A stretch of 32,000 nucleotides of DNA, from positions 60,001-92,000 of the forward strand of contig AP027133.1 of assembly GCA_027925325.1 (NCBI GenBank), read 5' to 3'. This DNA comes from Candidatus Saccharimonadota bacterium (lineage in GTDB: Bacteria; Bacillota_I; Bacilli_A; Mycoplasmatales; Hepatoplasmataceae). The notes under the pieces were generated by a model. That model was not told where the DNA came from. It searched no databases and saw nothing but the letters and a program-made list of their open reading frames with translations. A program made the translations under genes and the position numbers. Positions 7,148 through 29,592 of this stretch are shown one piece after another. Numbering within the stretch: position 1 is the stretch's first letter; each line of letters starts with the position of its first letter.

Positions 7148-7224
7148 AGGGGTGTAGCTCAATTAGGCAGAGCAGCTGACTTCAGATCAGACGGTTGTGG
7201 GTTCGATTCCTGTCACCCCTGCCA
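7148..7224 (+). tRNA. trpT: tRNA-Trp, anticodon UCA (reads UGA/UGG)
   Basis: 77-nt cloverleaf folded by hand. Acceptor AGGGGTG/CACCCCT. D arm GCTC..GAGC. Anticodon arm GCTGA-CTTCAGA-TCAGA with TCA at 7182-7184. T loop TTCGATT. Discriminator G73 and an encoded CCA. A1-U72 with G73 is typical of bacterial tRNA-Trp. Confidence 0.9.
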
Positions 7225-7273
7225 TTTTTTATCGAAATGAAAAGGTTAATTTCTTTAATTTTCGTTTTTATTA

Positions 7274-7350
7274 AGAGATGTAGCTCAATTAGGTAGAGCA
7301 GCTGACTCCAGATCAGACGGTTGTGGGTTCGATTCCTTCCATCTCTGCCA
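7274..7350 (+). tRNA. trpT: tRNA-Trp, anticodon CCA (reads UGG)
   Basis: 77 nt and about 90% identical to the upstream tRNA. Acceptor AGAGATG/CATCTCT carries compensatory changes. Anticodon loop CTCCAGA with CCA at 7308-7310. G73 and an encoded CCA. Confidence 0.9.
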
Positions 7351-7418
7351 AAATATCTTAAAATTAAGATGATATCTTTTTTTAGGGCCAAAATTAAAAG
7401 TAAGTTAAATTATGTAAT

Positions 7419-7498
7419 AGGAGTGTAGCTCAATTTGGGGGAGCAGTTGGCATTTTTAAGAATGCTGGTGGTTGCAGGTTCAAATCCTGCCACTCCTA
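7419..7498 (+). ncRNA. tRNA-Trp-derived tRNA-like gene with a non-canonical anticodon arm (possible pseudogene or neofunctionalised RNA)
   Basis: 80 nt. Acceptor AGGAGTG/CACTCCT, D arm GCTC-AATTTGGGG-GAGC and T arm GCAGG-TTCAAAT-CCTGC are intact and collinear with the two Trp tRNAs. The anticodon region GTTGGCATT-TTTAAG-AATGCTGGT forms a stem of about 9 bp (5 Watson-Crick plus 4 G-U) with a 6-nt loop, or 8 bp with an 8-nt loop. This is 24 nt where 17 is normal. The discriminator is A and no CCA is encoded. Confidence 0.6.
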
Positions 7499-7514
7499 CT
7501 GTTTTGTTTAGAAT

Positions 7515-11512: not shown

Positions 11513-12778
11513 ATGAATAAATTATTAGAAGACTTAAAGTGAAGATCACTTTTGAAAGAATTAATTACAGAAGATGATGTCAGTAAAATTTTTTCATTAG
11601 ATGATAAAAAATTTTATCTTGGAATTGATCCTACTGCCGACTCTTTGCATATCGGTCACTTTTTAACGATAAATTTAGCAAATTTAATTTCTAAAAAATC
11701 TAATTTAACTCCTGTTTTTGTATTAGGCGGTTTTACAGCACAGATTGGTGATCCTTCTGGGAAAAATGCCGAACGAAAATTAATTTCGGAAAATATTGTT
11801 GCTAATAATTGCAAAAAAATAAAAGAACAATTACAATTTATTTGCAAAAATTTAGAAATTAAAAATTATGAAATTTTTGATAATTTTAATATTTATAAAA
11901 ATTTAACATTAATTGATTTTTTTAAAAAATATGGAAAATTAATTAATATTTCAAAAATGCTTTCTCGAGATGTTGTAAAAAATCGAATTGATGTTGGAAT
12001 ATCATATACAGAATTTTCTTATCAAATTTTTCAAGCAATTGATTTTTTATATTTATTTGAAAATAAAAATGTTTTATTGCAAATTGGTGGATCCGATCAA
12101 TTTGGCAATATTTTATCAGGAATTGAAATTATTAGAAGAATTAGAAATAAAAATATATTAATCGGAGGAATTACTGTTCCTTTATTAATTGATGAAAGTG
12201 GGAATAAAATTGGAAAGACAGATGGAAATCCTCTTTGAATATCAAAAGAAAAATTATCTCCTTATTTTATTTATCAATATTTATTTAATCTTTCTGATTC
12301 TTTTGCTAAGAAATTATTATTACAACTTACAACAATTACTAAATTTGAATTTTCAGATTTATTAAAAAAAGCCAATTCTAACAAAAGGGAAAGATATTTA
12401 CAAAAAGAATTAATTAGAAGATTATTTATTTCCTTTTATGGAGATAATGATTATTTTGAAAAATTTGATAAGATTTCTGAATATTTATTTACACAAAATT
12501 ATCAAAAAATTGAGGAAAAACTTTTACTTGATATTTTTAAAAATTTAGATTCTTTTAAATATGATTTTAAACAAGATTTATTTACACAATTAAAATCTAA
12601 TAATTTAATAAGTTCAAAGCGAGAATTTATTCAATTTTTAAAAGATAAGGCTTTAAAAATTAATAATACATCGATATTAGAAGTTGATTTTAAGTTAAAA
12701 AAAACTGATTTTTCAAAGCAAAAATTTTTAATTTTATCATTGGGTAAAAAGAAAAAAATAATTATAAAATTAAATTAA
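11513..12778 (+). CDS. tyrS: tyrosyl-tRNA synthetase
   Basis: ATG at 11513, preceded by AGGAG (11501-11505). HIGH-type motif DSLHIGH. GGSDQFGNI. KMSKS-equivalent KIGKT. Continues through TGA codons at 11540 and 12236 to TAA at 12776-12778. C-terminal S4-like region. Confidence 0.9.
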
Positions 12779-12787
12779 TTGTTATTT

Positions 12788-12815
12788 TTGCTTAAAATTA
12801 TTAATATTTTATAAT
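12788..12815 (+). promoter_or_regulatory. putative sigma-70-type promoter for the HTH gene
   Basis: TTGCTT (12788-12793), a 16-nt spacer, then TATAAT (12810-12815). AAGGAG RBS at 12827-12832. Hexamers like these arise easily in DNA this AT-rich. Confidence 0.35.
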
Positions 12816-12847
12816 TTTAATTGTAAAAGGAGTTTGTTTATAAATTA

Positions 12848-14029
12848 ATGAATGATATTTCTCATTTTGAAAAGAATAATTTTAATTTTTTATATGCTAA
12901 AAAATTGAACGAAAATTGAAAAAGAGATAATAAAATTATCTATTTGCATTTTAATTATAATTTAGGTTTTAATAATCTTGCACAGGAATTTGGATTAACA
13001 AAAGAGAGAATAAGGCAAATTTTAATTAAATTTATATCTAGTTTTAATAAAAAAGAAAAGAATAATTTTTTTATTGATTTTTATGTAAGAAGAAATAAAT
13101 TTAAATTTATTTCTAAGTTTTTTAAAATTGAATGTAATTTTTATAAAAAACAATTAGAACAAGAGATTGAGGATATTTCTTTCAAATTTAGTTATAATAA
13201 TAATTTTTTCAAAATAGTTAAAAAATCTTTAATTTTAAAATCAAATGCTAGATATTTTTTAAAATCAAATAACTATTTTAAATTAAATATTTTAGATTTT
13301 AAAGATAATTTAATCTTGCCTTTTTGAAAGCAATTTGAATTTAAAGATATAATCACAAGAAAAGATAAGGTAGATATTATTGCAAAGGCTTATTTTAAAC
13401 CTTATACAAAATATAAAATTGAGGAAATAATTTCAATTTATAAACAATATTTTCCAAAATTAAGTAGAAGGGCAATTGAAGGAATGCTTTTTAATTATAA
13501 TGAGATTTTTTCTCTTTCTGCGGGAAAATATATGATTTCTTATTATAAGGATCAAAAAGAATTTTTATACTTTTCATATATTGCTGATTTAATATATGAA
13601 AAAGTAAATAATTTTTTCTTAAATGATGATAATATAATTTGTGATATTTCAAAATTTAAAGAAAAGAATAATTTTAATTATCCTTTCTTAAATGAACATC
13701 ATTACTATTTTTTTGCAAAAAAATATTCAGAAAAATTTAATAATAAATTTGATTCTTTTAGATCACCAATAATTTTTAAAAAAGAACAAAAAGCAAAAAT
13801 TTCTGGAAAAGATATTCAACTTTTATTTAAAAAACAGATTGAAATGTTTTTAGAAGAAAATGATTTATATAACAAATGAATTAATAAAGATTTATTTTTA
13901 AAAAATATTCATGATGAATATGGAATAAAAGATTATTATTTTTTTCAAAAAATGCATTTATTTAATTTAAATAAAATTTCTGGTAATCGCTATGAAAAAG
14001 GAAAAATAAAATTTAATAAAGATTATTAA
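12848..14029 (+). CDS. hypothetical DNA-binding protein with an N-terminal sigma-70 region 4-like helix-turn-helix (393 aa)
   Basis: ATG at 12848. Track ORFs 12944-13327 and 13484-13879 and the linkers share frame 2 across TGA codons (12917, 13325, 13877). Residues about 30-63, IIYLHFNYNLGFNNLAQEFGLTKERIRQILIKFI, match the region 4.2 pattern (G-x-T/S-x-E-R-I/V-R-Q-I). The rest is unrecognised. TAA stop at 14027-14029. Confidence 0.6.
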
Positions 14030-15990
14030 ATTTTATTGAATTTACTTCTTCTTATTTCAATTTTGTCATCGTTTATAAATTGAAAAAGAGTTAATTTATC
14101 TAATTCTATTTTTTTATTGACTTTACTTTTATTTAAGATAATTAAGGTATTTTTATATTCATCTTTATTTTCAATTTTTAATAATAAAGATCTTAATTCT
14201 TGTTCATTTATATTTCCTGCTTCTAAAATTTCATCAAATAAAAGGTTATTTTGATAATTATAATTATTTGAGATTATGTATTTTCTTAAAATTATTGAAA
14301 AATTTTTATTAATATATTTTATTTTATTTTCAATACTAAAATATTTTGATTGAAAAATTGGAAAATAAAAATAAGGTATTTGAATTAATTTTTCATTTTT
14401 ATTTTTTGTAACATAATCTGATAATGGTTTTAAATTATTTTTTTGAACAGCAATAAAGAGTTCTTTAAAATAAGGAAGAACATTATTCAAAATTTGTTTA
14501 AAATTTTCATTTAAAATCTGATATTTTCAATTTATTATTGGGTCATTAATTTTACCAAAAATAAAAGAACGTAAATTAAAAGTTAATTTATTTTCATTTT
14601 TTATTATAAAATCAAAAAATTTACTTTGATACTCAAATTGATTTTTTAATAAATCTTCTATTAAAATCATAAAAGTTAATTCATCATTTTTTATTTTTAC
14701 ATTAAGCATCTTAATTAATTTTAGAAAATCTTTTGTATTATCTAATTCATAATTTTTAAAAATATTTTCTCTTATATATAATTTAGCAATATCTTCAACA
14801 ATTGGATTTAATTCTTTTTTGAAGACGTTATCGATCGAAATAATGAAATTGTCTTTTAATAACTTATTAAATAATATTTCTGTATGAGCTCTATTTTTAA
14901 TTCTTATTAGAAGTTTTTTGAATTCTTCATCATTTAAAAAGTGTTTTTTATGAAAGTGATCAAAAAGTTCTCTGAATAATTTTCAATCTTTTTCATTTTT
15001 ATAAAGATTATAAATGACAATAATTGTATTTAAAGATAGTTTGGTTTCTTTAGTACTCAATTTATCATATTGAAGGTAAAATTTTATTATTTTTTTTAAT
15101 TCTAAAATTGACATTCTTAAATTGTAATTATTTTTTTCAATATAATATGAAATTAACTGATCACTTAATTCTTTTTTTGCTGCCTCAAATTCATTTTTAT
15201 CGCTTGTTTTTTTGATTAATTCATTTCTAATTACTTTAATATTCTCTATTTCTTTTCGCTCAACATTTATCACATAATCAATATATTTTAAATCCTCATT
15301 AAATAATTTATCTTCAGAATCAGTTTCAATAATAATAATTTTTTTATAATCAATATTTATTAAATTTAAAAATCCTTTACTTAATTTTCCTTGTTCGCTT
15401 TTTTCTTTAAATTCAGATATGAAACGGTAAACAGCAATTTCAACATCTTTTCCTTCATCTGACATTCGATTTATTTCATCAAATATATAAATATCTTTTT
15501 TATTAAAAAATAAGGGAATAATAGGTAAAACAAAAATTATTAAGATTGCAGAGATGAAAATTCATAATATCGTCATCGTTTGACTTTGATCTAAAATAAT
15601 TAAAATAAATGAAAATGATATTCAAATTAATGCTATTAAATAATAAAGATTCCTAATTTCAGAAAGAAAGGAAACTAATTTTCCTCGATAACCGAAGATA
15701 TCTTTTTCAAATGAAGGATATCGAAAATGTCTCTGTTCAAATGATTTACAATCTATTTTTTTGACTTTTGATTTTTTGATATTTAATTTTGTTAATAAAT
15801 AATTTAAATAATAAGTTTTTCCACTTCCCTTTTTTCCAGCAAAATTAATAATAATCGGCTTATTATATTTAAAATTTTTTTTTCTATCTTTTTTGATTTT
15901 TTCGCTTATAAAATTGATTTGTGCAACTAACTCATTTGATTTATAATCATTTTTATCATCATCATTAAAATTATTATTTTTAGAATTCAT
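14026..15990 (-). CDS. KAP-family P-loop NTPase with two TM helices inserted between Walker A and Walker B (654 aa)
   Basis: Track ORFs 15622-15990, 14983-15465, 14527-14709 and 14026-14490 share one frame. I translated all three linkers and they contain only TGA codons (15622, 15562, 14983, 14527). Walker A GKKGSGKT is at 15814-15837. Hydrophobic helices LYYLIALIWISFSFILIIL and ILWIFISAILIIFVLPIIPLFF are at 15505-15648. Walker B IYIFDEINR is at 15466-15492. TAA stop at 14026-14028. Confidence 0.7.
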
Positions 15991-15999
15991 ATATTATTT

Positions 16000-16005
16000 A
16001 TTATA
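16000..16005 (-). promoter_or_regulatory. possible -10 box (TATAAT on the minus strand) for the KAP NTPase gene
   Basis: TATAAT lies 9 nt upstream of the ATG at 15990 and just downstream of the ppa terminator. No Shine-Dalgarno was seen, which would imply a leaderless or near-leaderless mRNA. Weak evidence in AT-rich DNA. Confidence 0.25.
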
Positions 16006-16014
16006 TTATGAAAT

Positions 16015-16041
16015 AAAAAAAAATTCCCGATTAGGGAATTT
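16015..16041 (-). terminator. rho-independent terminator downstream of ppa
   Basis: On the minus strand: stem AAATTCCC / GGGAATTT (plus-strand 16021-16028 and 16034-16041), loop of 5 nt, then a T-run. The plus-strand A9 run at 16015-16023 supplies both part of the stem and the T-run. The hairpin partly overlaps the ppa stop codon. Confidence 0.7.
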
Positions 16042-16577
16042 TATTTGTATTTATTGGGATATTTTTTCTTCATTATTTTGATAAATTCACTTTTTTCTAA
16101 ATGATGAAATTCTTTATAAATATTTTTTGCTTCTTCTAATTCTTTTTTAGCAAAAGTTATATCTTCAAATCCTAATATCTCAACTTTTTTATTTTGCAAA
16201 TTTTTATAATTTTCAAAAAAGTCTTTAAATTCCAATAGAAGATTTTTATTTAAATCATTTAATTTATTAATATTATCAAATCTTGGGTCTACGTCAACAA
16301 CTGTAAGTATTTTTGTATCAGTTTCGCCCGCATCGATCATTTTGATTGCGCCAATTATTCTGATTGGAACAATACTTTTTGGTAAAAATTGTTGATCAGA
16401 AATAATAAGTGCATCTAAAGGATCTCCATCTCAATCTAAAGTTTCTTCAAAATAACCATAATTTGCTGGATAATTCATTGCGCCATATAATATGCGATCA
16501 ACTTTTAAACGTCCATCCTCTATTTCATATTTAACTTTTGAATTCTTAGGAATTTCTATTACTATATTAGCTTTCAT
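16041..16577 (-). CDS. ppa: inorganic pyrophosphatase (family I)
   Basis: ATG at 16577 ([18 protein letters not shown]). [20 protein letters not shown] with TGA read as Trp. [14 protein letters not shown]. 178 aa. Track ORF 16041-16340 is the C-terminal part in the same frame. Confidence 0.9.
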
Positions 16578-24975: not shown

Positions 24976-25917
24976 ATGGAATTTAATTTTACAAATTTAA
25001 AATCGATCCGGATTGATAAATATTTAATTGAGATATTAAAAGATCAACAAATACAATTAACAAGAAGTAAAATTAGTGATTTAATTAAGAAAAAAGGAAT
25101 ATTTGTTAACGGAAAATTAATAACAAAATCCGGATATCTTTTAAAAGGGAACGGAATTATAAAAATTAGCGATCTTTTTTTAGATCAAGAAGATAATCAA
25201 AATTTAAATAAATGATACAATTCGGAATTAATTGATATAATTTTTGAAACAGATGATTATATTGTAATTAATAAACCATCTAACTTATCTGTTTACCCTG
25301 GATCTGGAAGTAGAGATGATACTTTAGTTAATATTCTTATTTCATTAAGGAGTGATTTAGCTAATATTGAAACTAAAAGACCGGGAATTGTTCATAGAAT
25401 TGACAAAAATACTTCTGGCGTGCTAATAATAGCCAAAAATGATAATTTTGCTAATTATTTGCAAAAACAATTTAAAGAGCGAAAAATATATAAAGAATAT
25501 TTAGCAATAACCAACGGGAATCTTCCATCTAAAAAGGGAATAATAGATGCTCCAATTGGAAGAAATGTTAATAATAGAAAATTGATGACGGTAACTAATA
25601 AAAATAGTAAATATGCGATTACTGAGTATGAAGTTATTAAAAGATTTACAAATTATGATTATTTAAAATTAATTTTAAAAACAGGAAGAACACATCAAAT
25701 TCGTGTTCATTTGAAATTTTTAAATACTCCTATTTTAAATGATTTTGATTATGGTAGAAAAATAAAAAGTAATAATATTTATGGTCAGTTCTTACATGCT
25801 TATAAAATTTGTTTTTATGATTATGAAAGTAATAAAAAATGTTATACAGCAAAATTACCTTCTTATTTTAGAAAGCAATTAGATATTTTAAAAAGGAATA
25901 AAAATGGCGAAAATTAG
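24976..25917 (+). CDS. rluD: RluD/RluA-family 23S rRNA pseudouridine synthase with an N-terminal S4 domain
   Basis: Track ORFs 24976-25215 and 25420-25917 are in the same frame, with TGA at 25213. S4-like RIDKYL. Catalytic motif HRIDKNTSGVLIIAKN. TGRTHQIRVH. Confidence 0.85.
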
Positions 25918-27556
25918 ATTATTAGGTCTAGGAGGCCTGGATGAAAAAGCAAAAGATTTATATGTTTTAGAAATCGATTCTAAAATATTTATTTTAGATG
26001 CCGGTGTATCCGAACCTTTTTATCCATTATTAGGAATAAATTATTATATTCCTAAAATTGATTATTTAAAGGAAAATGCAGATAAAATAAAAGGGATTTT
26101 TTTATCTTCTCCAAATCGTAGCATGATAGGTGCAATTTTACAAATATTAAATTTATTTCCTAAAATTCCTATTTACGGATCAGATATTACAATTAAATCT
26201 TTGGATGTATTTTTTAAAAATAATTTTCAGATAAAAAAAGCAAATAAAAATATAATATCTGAAAATAAATCAGTAAAAATAGATGATATTTTAATAAGGG
26301 TTGTGGACTTAAATGCCTCTTGCCCAGGGACTTTGGGATATGTTTTTAATACAACTGATGGAAATATTTTTTATTTTTCATCATATATTTTTGATTACAT
26401 TGAAGAATACAATATATCAATTTTTGATCATATAAAAAAATATACAATCGAAAAAAATCTTTTATTTATATCTGATTCATTAAATATGAATCGTAATTCT
26501 TCGATATATCCTCTTTACAAAATAAGCAATCATATAGAAAAATATTTTGATGAAAAGAAAAGAATTTTTATAACTATTTATGAAGATAATATTATTAATA
26601 TAGTTGAGATTATTAATTTAGCAAAAGAATATAAAAGAGATATTTATATATTTGATGTTGAGTTTTTAGAATTAATTAAATTAATGATGCAAGCAAAAAG
26701 AATTCCTTATTTTGATCTTAAGAAAGCATCAGAATTAAAAAGTTCAATCCCAGCAGAAAAAATAATTATTATAATGTCGGGAACAAGATCTAATCTTTAT
26801 CATCGTGTAAAAGCAAGTCTAATTGAAGATAATATTTATAATTTAGAAATTGAAAAAAGAGATATTTTTATTTTTGCATCAGAACCACAACCAGGTAACG
26901 AAGCTATATTTCAAAATATCACAAGTGAGGTTTCAAAAATTGATCCTAAAACATTAATTTTGAGTGAAAATGATAAAATTTGGATTCATCCGACTCAATA
27001 TGATTTAAAAAATTATATTGGTTTATTAAAGCCAAAATTTTTCATGCCAGTAAAAGGATTTTTTAAAGAATTTATTGAAGCCAAGAAAATTTTAAAATCA
27101 ATCGGCTATAAGGATAATCAGATTATTATTTGTGAAAATGGGGAGATTTTTGAGATAAATGATGGGAATAATTTAGGTATTGTTCGCAAAATAAAAGAAG
27201 TTGGAGAACAAATAATAGAAGGAATGAATGATGAACTTATAGATAGTGAAATAATTACACAAAGACAAGCTCTAGGAAAAGATGGATTACTTACAATAGG
27301 ATGTGTTGTCAGTAAAGAAGAAAATTTTAAGATAATTTCAAATATAGATATTCAAATGAGGGGATTAATTTATATTAAAAATCAAGAGAAATTAATGCAA
27401 AATTTAGAGAATGAGATTAAATTGATAATTGAAGAAAATCGTGATGATTTTATCTTAAATCGAGTTCAATCGATCATAATAAAAAGAATTAATAAAATAT
27501 TACGTTTGTCAATTAAGAAAATTCCGACTATAATAATAAAGATTAAGCAAATATAA
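25904..27556 (+). CDS. RNase J-like protein (beta-CASP metallo-beta-lactamase fold) with substituted metal-binding motifs
   Basis: 550 aa and collinear with RNase J: LGLGGLDE..LYVLEIDSKIFILDAGV, LKPKFFMPV, and a C-terminal domain. The HxHxDH motif is replaced by SSPNRS (LSSPNRSM spans 26102-26125). Other His/Asp ligands are also substituted: NASCPG, YFSSYIFD, HPTQYD and MPVKGFF. The start overlaps rluD by 14 nt. Confidence 0.65.
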   Translation: MAKIRLLGLGGLDEKAKDLYVLEIDSKIFILDAGVSEPFYPLLGINYYIPKIDYLKENADKIKGIFLSSPNRSMIGAILQILNLFPKIPIYGSDITIKSLDVFFKNNFQIKKANKNIISENKSVKIDDILIRVVDLNASCPGTLGYVFNTTDGNIFYFSSYIFDYIEEYNISIFDHIKKYTIEKNLLFISDSLNMNRNSSIYPLYKISNHIEKYFDEKKRIFITIYEDNIINIVEIINLAKEYKRDIYIFDVEFLELIKLMMQAKRIPYFDLKKASELKSSIPAEKIIIIMSGTRSNLYHRVKASLIEDNIYNLEIEKRDIFIFASEPQPGNEAIFQNITSEVSKIDPKTLILSENDKIWIHPTQYDLKNYIGLLKPKFFMPVKGFFKEFIEAKKILKSIGYKDNQIIICENGEIFEINDGNNLGIVRKIKEVGEQIIEGMNDELIDSEIITQRQALGKDGLLTIGCVVSKEENFKIISNIDIQMRGLIYIKNQEKLMQNLENEIKLIIEENRDDFILNRVQSIIIKRINKILRLSIKKIPTIIIKIKQI

Positions 27557-27585: not shown

Positions 27586-29592
27586 ATGGTTAATAAAAAT
27601 AATAAAAATAAAAAAAATTTTTTTTCATCAAGTCTAAATACGATTTCAAATTATTTTAAAAATACTTTTAAAAGGGATAAAAAAAATGAGATTTCTTTAC
27701 AAAGTGAAAGTTTTGAAAATAGTGAGATTTTAAATAAAAAATCAGATAATTTTGATCTTTTAGAAGAAAATACTCGTCTTTCAAAAATTAAAAATAAAAT
27801 TTTATCTGAAAAAAAAGGAGAAGATTTTTTAGATGAAAATTTAGATCTTCAAACAAATACAGCGCAATTTTTATTTGAAAATATTTTTGAAACAGAAAAA
27901 TTAAAACAAAAATTAGAAGAATTAAATTTAGAGAAAAAAATTGATATTGATATTAATGATAAAAATAAAAAATCTTATTCATTAAAATTTGATAATAATG
28001 ATTTAAATGATGATTTAAAGCAAAATAATAATTCTAATGATTCTGATGAATTGTTTTCTGATTTTGAATACGAAAATGAAATTAGTGAAGAATTAGATGA
28101 AGATAATTTAAAAAAAAACGAGATAAATAATTTAGAGGAAATTGAAGATAAAAAGGAAATAGAGGAAGTTGATATTCAAAAAAAAAACGAGATAAATACT
28201 AAATTTCCTTTTTTTTTATTGCAAAATCAAAAAGAAAAGATAGATAATGATGATTCAAGTGAAAAATATCAGCGAAAAATTAATTATATTTTGAGAAATG
28301 TTGATTTTCCAGGAAAAATTAGTGAAGTAAATAGTTGCTCGACATTTTCTACTTTTGTAATTACTCTTTTTAAAAATTTTAATATAAAAGATTTATATAA
28401 ATTTAAAAGTCATTTTAGTAAATTTTTTTATAAAATAGATTATCGGTTTGATATTAATAAAATTAATCAAAAAAAATTAATTTTAGAGATAAAAAATCCC
28501 TATTTTAATATTTCAAATTTTAAATATTTTTATCAAAAAATGAATAATGATTTTATTGAAGAAAAATTGATATTAGGACAAGATTATCAAAATAAACCAA
28601 TTTATAAGTCTTTATCAAAATTATTTATATTAGCAAAAGCAAAAGATAAAACTAATTTTATTAATAATCTAATTACATCTATTGTTTTAAAAAAAAATTC
28701 TGATGAGATAAAATTTAAAATTTTTTTAGAAAAAGATATTGATTTAAAATATGATTTAAATTTTCCATTTTTTTTTGAAAATAACTTATCTAAAAATTAT
28801 TCATTAAACGAAATGATTGATATTTATAATCAAAGAAAAGAAATTTTTAAACAAAAAAAAGCTAATAATTTTGATCATTATAATAATCTACTAATTGATG
28901 AAAATGAAAGAATTCCTAAAATAATTTTGGTAATTTCTGAATTAAAAAATGTATTAGAAAATAATGATAATTCTATTATTAATAAATTTATAAAAATAAT
29001 TGCAAAAGGTGAGAAATATGGAATTTATCCAATTTTGTTGGCAGAAAAAATATCTAATAATATTAGAGAAAAGATTGATATAAATTTATTTAAAAACGAA
29101 CAACGAATTTTATTTTTTCAAGATACTAATTTATCAAATTTTCAATTTTTCAAAAATAAAGAAATTGATAAATTATTTTCAATTGGAGATTTTGTCATTT
29201 TAAATCAAAATGAATTAATTCATTGTCAACAGATAGTTATTTCAGATCAGGAATTAAAATTAATAAATATTTATTTAAAAAATTTTTATAATTTAAGAAA
29301 TAAACAAAGGTTAATTGAAAATAATATGAATGATAAAATGAATCAAGAAGATATAAATGAGGAAATTTTAGATAAAGATGATTTTTTACTAAAGACAGCA
29401 AAAATGATTTTATCTGAAAAAAAAGAGATAAATTTGCAAATAATTCAATCTTATATGGGGATTGATTATAATCAAGCATATTTAATATTAAGAAGTTTAA
29501 TTAAATATAAGATAATCTCTGATCAAAAAAATAATAATAATCGCTATAAATTAATTGATGAAGAGGTTTATAATGAAGTCGAATATTTCTAA
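27586..29592 (+). CDS. FtsK/SpoIIIE-like protein lacking TM segments, with substituted Walker motifs and a gamma-domain-like winged helix
   Basis: ATG at 27586, with an alternative TTG at 27565. The N-terminal 210 aa or so are acidic/Lys-rich low complexity. The core is collinear with the FtsK motor: LGQDYQNKPIYKSLSKLFILAKAKDKTNFINNLITSIV where FtsK has LG.D..G......L...PH.L.AG.TGSGKS; IPKIILVISELKNV where FtsK has the DEFADL Walker B; LLAEKIS where FtsK has ATQRPS. The C-terminus LLKTAKMILSEKKEINLQIIQSYMGIDYNQAYLILRSL resembles the gamma domain. Confidence 0.6.
   Translation: MVNKNNKNKKNFFSSSLNTISNYFKNTFKRDKKNEISLQSESFENSEILNKKSDNFDLLEENTRLSKIKNKILSEKKGEDFLDENLDLQTNTAQFLFENIFETEKLKQKLEELNLEKKIDIDINDKNKKSYSLKFDNNDLNDDLKQNNNSNDSDELFSDFEYENEISEELDEDNLKKNEINNLEEIEDKKEIEEVDIQKKNEINTKFPFFLLQNQKEKIDNDDSSEKYQRKINYILRNVDFPGKISEVNSCSTFSTFVITLFKNFNIKDLYKFKSHFSKFFYKIDYRFDINKINQKKLILEIKNPYFNISNFKYFYQKMNNDFIEEKLILGQDYQNKPIYKSLSKLFILAKAKDKTNFINNLITSIVLKKNSDEIKFKIFLEKDIDLKYDLNFPFFFENNLSKNYSLNEMIDIYNQRKEIFKQKKANNFDHYNNLLIDENERIPKIILVISELKNVLENNDNSIINKFIKIIAKGEKYGIYPILLAEKISNNIREKIDINLFKNEQRILFFQDTNLSNFQFFKNKEIDKLFSIGDFVILNQNELIHCQQIVISDQELKLINIYLKNFYNLRNKQRLIENNMNDKMNQEDINEEILDKDDFLLKTAKMILSEKKEINLQIIQSYMGIDYNQAYLILRSLIKYKIISDQKNNNNRYKLIDEEVYNEVEYF

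Follow-up and report, generated by a model that had tools for sequence, protein, structure and literature searches.

Two convergent genes between tyrS and ppa

The stretch analysed here, referred to throughout as the window, comprises 32,000 nucleotides (nt) of contig AP027133.1 (assembly GCA_027925325.1, positions 60,001 to 92,000, forward strand). Our subject is a pair of adjacent genes, termed gene A and gene B, which occupy the interval between tyrS and ppa; coordinates are window positions unless a comparison locus is named. Each encoded protein has a 100% identical counterpart among the hypothetical proteins of the Candidatus Hepatoplasma scabrum metagenome-assembled genome, HPPSJP_0710 for A and HPPSJP_0700 for B; this species is described as living in symbiosis with the woodlouse Porcellio scaber, in the hepatopancreas (PMC10928387). 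Gene A (14026–15990, minus strand) encodes a P-loop nucleoside triphosphatase (NTPase) of 654 amino acids (aa) with a predicted membrane insert, and gene B (12848–14029, plus strand) encodes a protein of 393 aa that opens with a helix-turn-helix (HTH) resembling sigma-70 region 4. The two genes converge, and their stop codons share the tetranucleotide TTAA at 14026–14029 (both strands), an overlap that is identical in other lineages (loci L001, L003, L004 and L005). The neighbouring genes are housekeeping genes.

The GC content of the window is 21.2%, and continuous long open reading frames appear only under genetic code 4. Gene A contains four in-frame TGA codons (aa 123, 143, 336 and 488) and gene B contains three. 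In gene A these positions form invariant tryptophan columns across five orthologues, with TGG in place of TGA at aa 488 in one lineage, and a tRNA with anticodon UCA lies at 7148–7224, adjoining tRNA-Trp(CCA). The reading of UGA as tryptophan is secure because this tRNA is present and the TGA sites of both genes coincide with invariant tryptophan columns, some of them written TGG in one related lineage. The UCA tRNA opens a row of three consecutive tRNA genes (7148–7499). ARAGORN labels the first 'SeC' (anticodon TCA), which corresponds to the UGA-reading tRNA-Trp expected under code 4; the third is an odd tRNA-like gene of 81 nt, for which a four-base anticodon, 'ttaa', is reported.

The Walker A motif of gene A, GKKGSGKT (15814–15837, minus strand; aa 52–59), and its Walker B motif, IYIFDEINR (15466–15492, minus strand; aa 167–175), are separated by 113 aa and are both invariant in the five orthologues. 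Between them, following helix alpha2 and preceding the Walker B strand, lies a hairpin of two hydrophobic helices (15505–15648, minus strand; aa 115–133 and 139–162) with the sequence LYYLIALIWISFSFILIIL-DQSQT-MTILWIFISAILIIFVLPIIPLFF, in which the loop DQSQT spans five residues; Walker B starts four residues past the second helix. Kyte–Doolittle means over 19 residues reach 2.5 and 2.95 in the two helices (threshold 1.6), and the outer flanks are basic, with R102, K104 and R113 on one side and K164 and K165 on the other. A low-confidence AlphaFold2 (AF2) model places helices at 100–133 and 139–162. Model confidence (pLDDT) is 43 for A and 37.5 for B, which is too poor for fold assignment.

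Downstream of Walker B, a putative sensor-1 strand, KIIIIET (15319–15339, minus strand; aa 218–224), aligns with the Lon strand VFFIATAN / VMFVATSN, and the same low-confidence model predicts a strand at 218–223. The remaining ~425 aa (aa 231–654; 14029–15300, minus strand) are predicted by that model to be entirely helical and form a C-terminal region without a recognisable domain: Pfam returned no match to it, and the candidate that it consists of solenoid repeats was rejected when self-comparison revealed no internal repeat. Conservation is unevenly distributed along the protein. Pairwise identity amounts to 85–90% in the NTPase core and hairpin (89.6% in the hairpin itself, whose intrahelical Ser and Pro residues are conserved) vs 63–78% in the C-terminal region, so that core and hairpin are the best conserved parts of A. 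The composition is extreme, with K, N, I, F, L and Y together contributing 64% of the residues.

In gene B, the HTH resembling regions 4.1–4.2 occupies aa 26–64 (12923–13039, plus strand) with the sequence KIIYLHFNYNL...LAQEFGLTKERIRQILIKF. The Pfam model Sigma70_r4 (PF04545) matches aa 26–59 at 21.7 bits in the full-length protein and at 24.2 bits when aa 1–100 are searched (cut-off 24.1), and one orthologue of B carries a precomputed PF04545 match. A profile search of the PDB with B returned mostly region 4 of RpoD, SigA and RpoS, each match being weak (E 0.24–2.3). Neither Sigma70_r2 nor Sigma70_r3 matched B, and the NCBIfam sigma-family matches cover only the C-terminal end of the models; B is not a sigma factor, because regions 2 and 3 are absent. 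A derivation of the HTH from the rpoD of the lineage was also considered and rejected, identity to Tyloplasma RpoD being 32% over 34 aa; B resembles the RpoD of its own lineage no more than it does other RpoD proteins. The best conserved part of B lies outside the HTH, at aa 161–245 (13328–13582, plus strand), with 88% mean pairwise identity vs 79.5% for the HTH. This segment has no Pfam, PDB or PHROG match, and its interpretation as a HARE-HTH-like winged helix (…RAIEGMLFNYNEIFSLSAGKYMISYY) was dropped after a Pfam search with the isolated segment and the PDB profile search gave no support.

A scan of 12600–16200 detected three terminator-like sites against 0.3 expected, two of which are the two strands of a single hairpin at 16020–16042. 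On the minus strand this hairpin (AAAATTCCC-TAATC-GGGAATTTT followed by a T run) forms the intrinsic terminator after ppa, and a hairpin with a T run is found at the same place in other lineages with a different stem sequence. No other hairpin with a proper T tail was found in 12600–16200, and none lies between A and B. Promoter-like hexamers in the same interval number 45 against 39 expected and are uninformative at this composition; claims about promoters therefore rest on conservation, because hexamer matches occur at chance level. Upstream of B, putative signals at 12788–12832 (plus strand) comprise TTGCTT, a 16-nt spacer, TATAAT (12810–12815) and GGAG (12829–12832) 15 nt before the ATG, and the TATAAT together with a GGGG/GGAG box is retained in four other lineages. 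Upstream of A, a TATAAT at 16000–16005 (minus strand) lies 9 nt before the ATG, with no Shine–Dalgarno sequence; this spacing is 9–12 nt in all five lineages, and a near-leaderless transcript of A, with a predicted start 2–5 nt before the ATG, is probable from this arrangement.

Much of this layout had been described in an earlier sequence-only reading of the window: the fusion of four minus-strand open reading frames across TGA codons into the 654-aa product, the exact positions of the Walker motifs and of the two-helix insert between them, the N-terminal region-4-type HTH of B without other sigma regions, the overlapping convergent stops with no terminator between them, the terminator after ppa, the housekeeping neighbours and the use of TGA as tryptophan in both genes. 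All of this is borne out by the present analysis. The promoter and ribosome-binding site that it assigned to B hold as conserved boxes, and not as hexamers exceeding chance.

Gene A within the P-loop NTPases

The sequence-only reading had also placed A in the KAP family. Database models do not support this assignment. Intact A matched no Pfam family above threshold and yielded only short P-loop matches (Zeta_toxin, AAA_22 and MobB, aa 34–94). KAP_NTPase (PF07693) gave no match to intact A at E≤1 and, for the four orthologues without the hairpin, none at E≤10 / E≤1, although plasmid F PifA matches this model at 3e-43. Similarly, the PADLOC models PifA, QatA and PDC-S20, which are matched by three KAP proteins used as positive controls, did not match A in either intact or hairpin-deleted form. 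NCBIfam and PHROGs returned nothing for A, and PADLOC-DB 2.0.0 returned no family for A, B or hairpin-deleted A. No YobI/Tmn match to A was obtained in Pfam, NCBIfam or PADLOC, the presence of a Tmn/YobI model in each of these libraries being unconfirmed by a positive control.

At the motif level, A contains the Walker A form GxxGxGK[ST] and a Walker B of the form hhhhD[DE]h[DN]R, where the KAP controls have DDLDR or DDIDR. It lacks two further motifs that are present in all four sequences of the KAP control alignment, namely PW after strand 2 and LEKxIQxPxxLP. The Walker B form, together with membrane segments inside the P-loop domain, had been taken as defining the KAP family, but IYIFDEINR of A aligns with FIDEIHR of RuvB and FLLDEIDK of Lon as well as with VVMDDLDR of KAP proteins. 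The form hhhhDEhNR cannot define KAP, because it is common to E. coli RuvB (FIDEIHR) and Lon (LDEIDK) aligns with it too.

The hairpin was then removed in silico, by deletion of aa 113–162, from A and its orthologues, four non-redundant sequences in all. After this deletion, AAA-type Pfam models were matched in four of four orthologues. PF00004 reached 21.2 bits, equal to its cut-off, with E 3–4e-4 over model positions 3–129 of 131 in every orthologue; AAA_14 reached 5e-6 (three of the four) and AAA_7 5e-5, and further matches were obtained to RNA_helicase, RuvB_N (three of four) and Torsin. In hhalign comparisons, hairpin-deleted A aligned with E. coli RuvB at 91% probability from Walker A to past Walker B, with the lineage's own Lon at 90% and E. 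coli Lon at 75% (Walker A, Walker B and the sensor-1 strand in both cases), and with a two-sequence Lon profile at 91%. Alignments with ClpX, FtsH, HslU, DnaA and an ABC ATPase scored low and were confined to the P-loop, as were those with intact KAP proteins (0.6–68%); reversed or unrelated sequences used as controls scored no more than 0.6%. When inserts were cut from both partners, however, a four-sequence KAP profile reached 90–93% probability against A (E 3e-7), in an alignment extending from the N-terminal helix to Walker B inclusive, and single insert-deleted KAP sequences ranged from 4% to 76%. A preference for Lon/RuvB over KAP was accordingly dropped, since KAP proteins also carry a long insert between Walker A and Walker B and its deletion levels the scores.

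The same alignments locate the insertion point. The A helix GKLVSFLSEI matches the helix that precedes Walker B in RuvB and in Lon (GKLIQKMAKV), and the hairpin takes the place of the short loop after alpha2 (EPHD in RuvB, GVKNP in Lon). In the Achromobacter protein, which alone among the KAP controls has an internal hairpin (Walker A at 71, transmembrane (TM) helices at 161–208, Walker B at 237), the hydrophobic helices precede the alpha2-equivalent helix KVRGDLETRLRKL. The insertion points of the two hairpins thus appear to differ by one helix, if these alignments of few sequences are right.

Profile searches of PDB sequences with A gave nothing, hairpin-deleted A gave P-loop noise only, and PifA was without a solved relative by sequence. 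Collectively, as judged from sequence comparison, A is an ASCE P-loop core (of the additional-strand catalytic E division) in the AAA+/KAP neighbourhood, to which these tools give no family assignment; on the same grounds, the KAP label is premature. The H. crinochetorum orthologues of A (L001 10001–11932 and L004 10001–11962) bear the public label 'DNA polymerase III PolC', a name to which Pfam and NCBIfam lend no support.

Distribution and evolution of the pair

A word-indexed search of 5.8 billion proteins recovered A and B from Hepatoplasma only, with four further clusters for A (70–76% identity) and two for B (69–80%). A HMMER profile of five A orthologues, run for A only against 1.84 billion protein representatives, was likewise confined to Hepatoplasma. 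Pattern scans of IMG/VR and of JGI metagenome contigs were empty for either gene, and tblastn with the N-terminal half of A against 72,556 plasmids and 50,697 phages gave no match at E≤10.

Gene order is the same in the five sampled lineages of the crinochetorum/scabrum clade (H. crinochetorum Av, strain Ps and three contigs derived from the SRA, one of which ends before tyrS): tyrS, B, A, ppa and ECF-S follow one another, with the same 4-nt overlap of A and B. Outgroup loci were reached by a search with the TyrS protein, whose identity is 74–75% within the clade bearing the pair and 45–48% to the outgroups. The block upstream of tyrS (two DegV genes, an M42 peptidase gene, genes for two small proteins, then tyrS) is retained in H. 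vulgare, a related Logan contig, Tyloplasma GLR43 and T. litorale, and at none of these four tyrS loci is A or B detectable. In H. vulgare (L012 11312–14131), the Logan contig (L014 5842–8689) and Tyloplasma GLR43 (L007 4930–7414), the genes after tyrS are rpsD and one encoding a protein of 540–563 aa, which in GLR43 begins with a hydrophobic stretch; in T. litorale other genes follow tyrS. The order in the first three resembles the tyrS–rpsD–ezrA neighbourhood of Bacillus. Within the crinochetorum/scabrum clade, the tyrS–rpsD linkage is broken exactly at the site of A and B.

The pair sits at a synteny breakpoint, between a family-wide block ending in tyrS and a block starting with ppa. Because it is absent from outgroups that share the block upstream of tyrS, we regard it as a clade-specific gain at this breakpoint, fixed within the clade. 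The description of the pair as accessory, given in the sequence-only reading, therefore stands with respect to H. vulgare and Tyloplasma, which lack it, and fails within the sampled crinochetorum/scabrum clade, where it is fixed at one position and evolves in the manner of tyrS. Amino-acid identity to three other lineages is 69–79% for A and B, 74–75% for tyrS and 72–75% for leuS, and Nei–Gojobori dN/dS for the closest pair is 0.130 for A, 0.140 for B, 0.129 for tyrS, 0.178 for leuS and 0.219 for tig. Both genes are inherited vertically and under strong constraint, and their occurrence is limited to the H. crinochetorum / H. scabrum clade.

The GC contents of A and B (16.7% and 17.9%) are the lowest of the window genes measured, next to 17.6% for ECF-S and 20–28% for the others. 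This deficit derives wholly from codon positions 1 and 2, GC at the third position (GC3) being equal to that of the neighbours. Such a pattern fits young or weakly anchored proteins drifting towards FYILMNK residues, and it hampers homology search. Around the pair we found no integrase, transposase, flanking direct repeats, adjacent tRNA or defence island, only low-complexity AT repeats, and the five sampled lineages show no presence/absence polymorphism for the pair. The defence systems recognised in Hepatoplasma, restriction-modification and CRISPR-Cas9, vary from strain to strain in published genomes (PMC10928387; PMC4536667).

Two further observations concern the distal part of the window. 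The RNase J gene (25904–27556, plus strand) showed 26–28% identity to the compared loci in automated orthologue pairing; this value is an artefact and not divergence, because the compared loci end inside the gene. A 668-aa open reading frame (27586–29592, plus strand) has weak FtsK_gamma and FtsK_SpoIIIE matches, lacks a GxxxxGK[ST] P-loop, with AKAKDKT at the expected place, and carries a long, acidic, low-complexity N-terminal half in which no hydrophobic stretch was noticed. It may represent a degenerate, ATPase-dead FtsK/SpoIIIE homologue.

Interpretation and comparison with known systems

We think it somewhat probable that the pair consists of a membrane-coupled ASCE ATPase, limited to this clade, under strong constraint and KAP/YobI-like in topology, together with a region-4-type DNA-binding protein, the two being expressed as separate convergent units. 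With the hairpin inserted, the catalytic core of A must lie flat on the cytoplasmic face of the membrane, because the first TM helix directly continues the helix in front of it and only four residues lie between the end of the second and Walker B. The Walker A and Walker B residues, intact and invariant, would bind and hydrolyse nucleotide, and this activity would be linked mechanically with the hairpin, probably within an oligomer, as is reported for the YobI-family protein Tmn. The mechanism is proposed by analogy, since A looks like a miniature of the design with a hairpin in the P-loop domain. The less conserved, helical C-terminal region of ~425 aa could serve as the partner- or signal-binding part. 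B, with its region-4 HTH and two conserved domains of unknown fold, may act as a regulator binding DNA or RNA polymerase. Transcription of B would start from its own TATAAT after tyrS and that of A from the TATAAT 9 nt before its ATG, directly past the ppa terminator, and under read-through each of the two RNAs would be antisense to the opposite gene. The fixed state of the pair, its location and its substitution rates favour a constitutive, lineage-specific function of the cell at its membrane over a mobile defence cassette.

Several considerations weigh against this reading. The AAA-type Pfam matches to A are borderline and were obtained only after manual removal of the insert, and Foldseek searches with the A model returned AAA+ matches only, NSF among them, all of them non-significant (E>0.08). 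The orthologue alignments are shallow (effective number of sequences about 1.3), which together with the extreme composition weakens statements on remote homology in both directions. Membrane insertion of the hairpin is predicted from hydropathy and a low-confidence AF2 model, and the functional link between A and B is suggested by adjacency and shared phyletic range only. Finally, conservation and fixation are compatible with a function in defence.

That last point bears on the proposal, made in the sequence-only reading, that the pair is a candidate defence module. In its strongest form, A would be a true KAP or YobI/Tmn NTPase and B its dedicated regulator, together forming an anti-phage or membrane-surveillance module that the clade ancestor gained horizontally and that has diverged beyond recognition at 21% GC. 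A hairpin inside the P-loop domain is given as the signature of the YobI/Tmn membrane NTPases (PMC13001434), Tmn has been classed as a KAP member (PMC11846954), and the Achromobacter KAP protein shares the layout. The insert-deleted KAP profile aligns with A as described above, the pair is absent from sister lineages, F-plasmid pifA likewise adjoins the gene of a DNA-binding regulator, pifC, and the HTH of B faintly matches the anti-phage sigma factor MzaA (E 0.002). Against these likenesses stand the KAP and PADLOC models that recover three KAP controls and never A, the lack of a YobI/Tmn match, the absence of KAP motifs beyond Walker A and Walker B, the equal scores of Lon and RuvB, and a hairpin apparently on the other side of helix alpha2. 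Moreover, published Hepatoplasma genomes vary in restriction-modification and CRISPR content (PMC10928387; PMC4536667), whereas the pair shows no presence/absence variation, defence island, PADLOC or PHROG match or mobile-element trace and has dN/dS values like those of tyrS. We consider this reading unlikely, and a defence role for the pair, although possible, is without positive evidence here and receives a similarly low estimate. An integrated element raises a related prospect, namely that the pair is the domesticated remnant of a prophage, plasmid or integrative and conjugative element beside tyrS. The lineage-specific insertion at a breakpoint, the low GC of A and B at codon positions 1 and 2 relative to most neighbours, and the frequency of KAP-type NTPases and sigma-region-4 HTH proteins as plasmid cargo (PifA homologues occur in 1133 plasmid records) would fit such a history. 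It is nevertheless the least probable of the alternatives considered, given the lack of an integrase, transposase, flanking direct repeat or adjacent tRNA, intergenic spacers of only 50–69 nt, phage, plasmid, IMG/VR and PHROG searches without a match, and GC3 values the same as those of the neighbours.

A more serious, though still doubtful, alternative is that A and B are unrelated orphan genes, juxtaposed beside tyrS by a chromosome rearrangement, with the TTAA overlap a product of genome compaction. The genes lie on opposite strands in separate transcription units, each with its own –10 box, and exactly at a synteny breakpoint; having no homologues elsewhere, they offer no independent evidence of co-occurrence, and Tmn-type NTPases are themselves reported to function on their own, no operon partner being conserved (PMC13001434). 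Yet their identical narrow phyletic range, similar rates and lowest GC suggest a common origin, and the overlap is unchanged in all five lineages. With low confidence we also entertain that the design of A arose independently: a Lon/RuvB-like AAA+ module already resident in the genome would have gained a membrane hairpin in its alpha2–beta3 loop, convergent with KAP and YobI/Tmn, and would, in a 0.6-Mb genome, have turned into a membrane ATPase that is fixed and of housekeeping grade, accompanied by a new regulator based on region 4. No Lon or RuvB is known to have a membrane hairpin in this loop.

P-loop NTPases with membrane helices in the catalytic domain are rare and so far known as patchily distributed conflict proteins (PifA, QatA and Tmn). 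Under the favoured reading of a membrane-coupled ATPase with a separate DNA-binding neighbour, the same design is here fixed, in a compact protein of 654 aa whose rate of evolution is as low as that of an aminoacyl-tRNA synthetase, in an uncultured symbiont with a genome of ~0.6 Mb. An independent origin of the design, or the domestication of a defence-type ATPase for a cellular job, would if true widen the supposed uses of the architecture, and the small size of A could suit it as a model for the coupling of ATP hydrolysis to a membrane hairpin. The result also corrects the 'DNA polymerase III PolC' label of the H. crinochetorum orthologues.

Among known systems, Lon and RuvB share with hairpin-deleted A the alignment of Walker A, alpha2 and Walker B, including the stretch GKLVSFLSEI..NKKDIYIFDEINRMS against GKLIQKMAKVGVKNPLFLLDEIDKMS in Lon, and in Lon the alignment continues to the sensor-1 strand; A differs in lacking their protease, substrate-binding or DNA-binding domains. 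For B, the likeness to sigma-70 region 4 (PF04545) extends over the pattern of aa 26–64, with LTKERIRQI corresponding to VTRERIRQI in RpoD. The HTH of B is N-terminal, whereas that of sigma factors is C-terminal, and it is followed by ~300 further residues without a known relative.

According to its description, the anti-phage protein Tmn, an NTPase of the YobI family, carries two TM helices in its P-loop domain and lacks accessory domains, and its C-terminal part is variable and wholly helical. The core of Tmn can be superposed on NSF, an AAA+ protein, and Tmn assembles into a membrane decamer with anti-phage activity (PMC13001434). By this description the layout of A is the same, with two predicted TM helices in the P-loop domain, no recognisable accessory domain and a less conserved C-terminal region predicted to be helical. 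The proportions differ, as ~210 residues separate Walker A (66–67) from D276 in Tmn-25 compared with 113 in A, and so does the distribution, Tmn being patchy and often carried on plasmids or prophages while A is fixed in one clade.

The KAP family (PF07693; PifA, QatA and Kidins220/ARMS) resembles A in its N-terminal helix and in a P-loop at the same offset (GAWGSGKT at 53–60 in PifA, GKKGSGKT at 52–59 in A). The Walker B of each follows hhhhD[DE]h[DN]R, and some KAP members, among them the Achromobacter plasmid protein, likewise carry a pair of hydrophobic helices between the Walker motifs. In contrast, the family models miss A, which lacks PW and LEKxIQxPxxLP, has its hairpin apparently after and not before alpha2, and spans only 113 aa from Walker A to Walker B; A is also chromosomal, fixed and slowly evolving, whereas KAP proteins are patchy. 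The closest parallel in gene arrangement is that of plasmid F, in which the KAP gene pifA lies directly downstream of the repressor gene pifC (L015 14673–15761) and in the same direction, whereas A and B are convergent.

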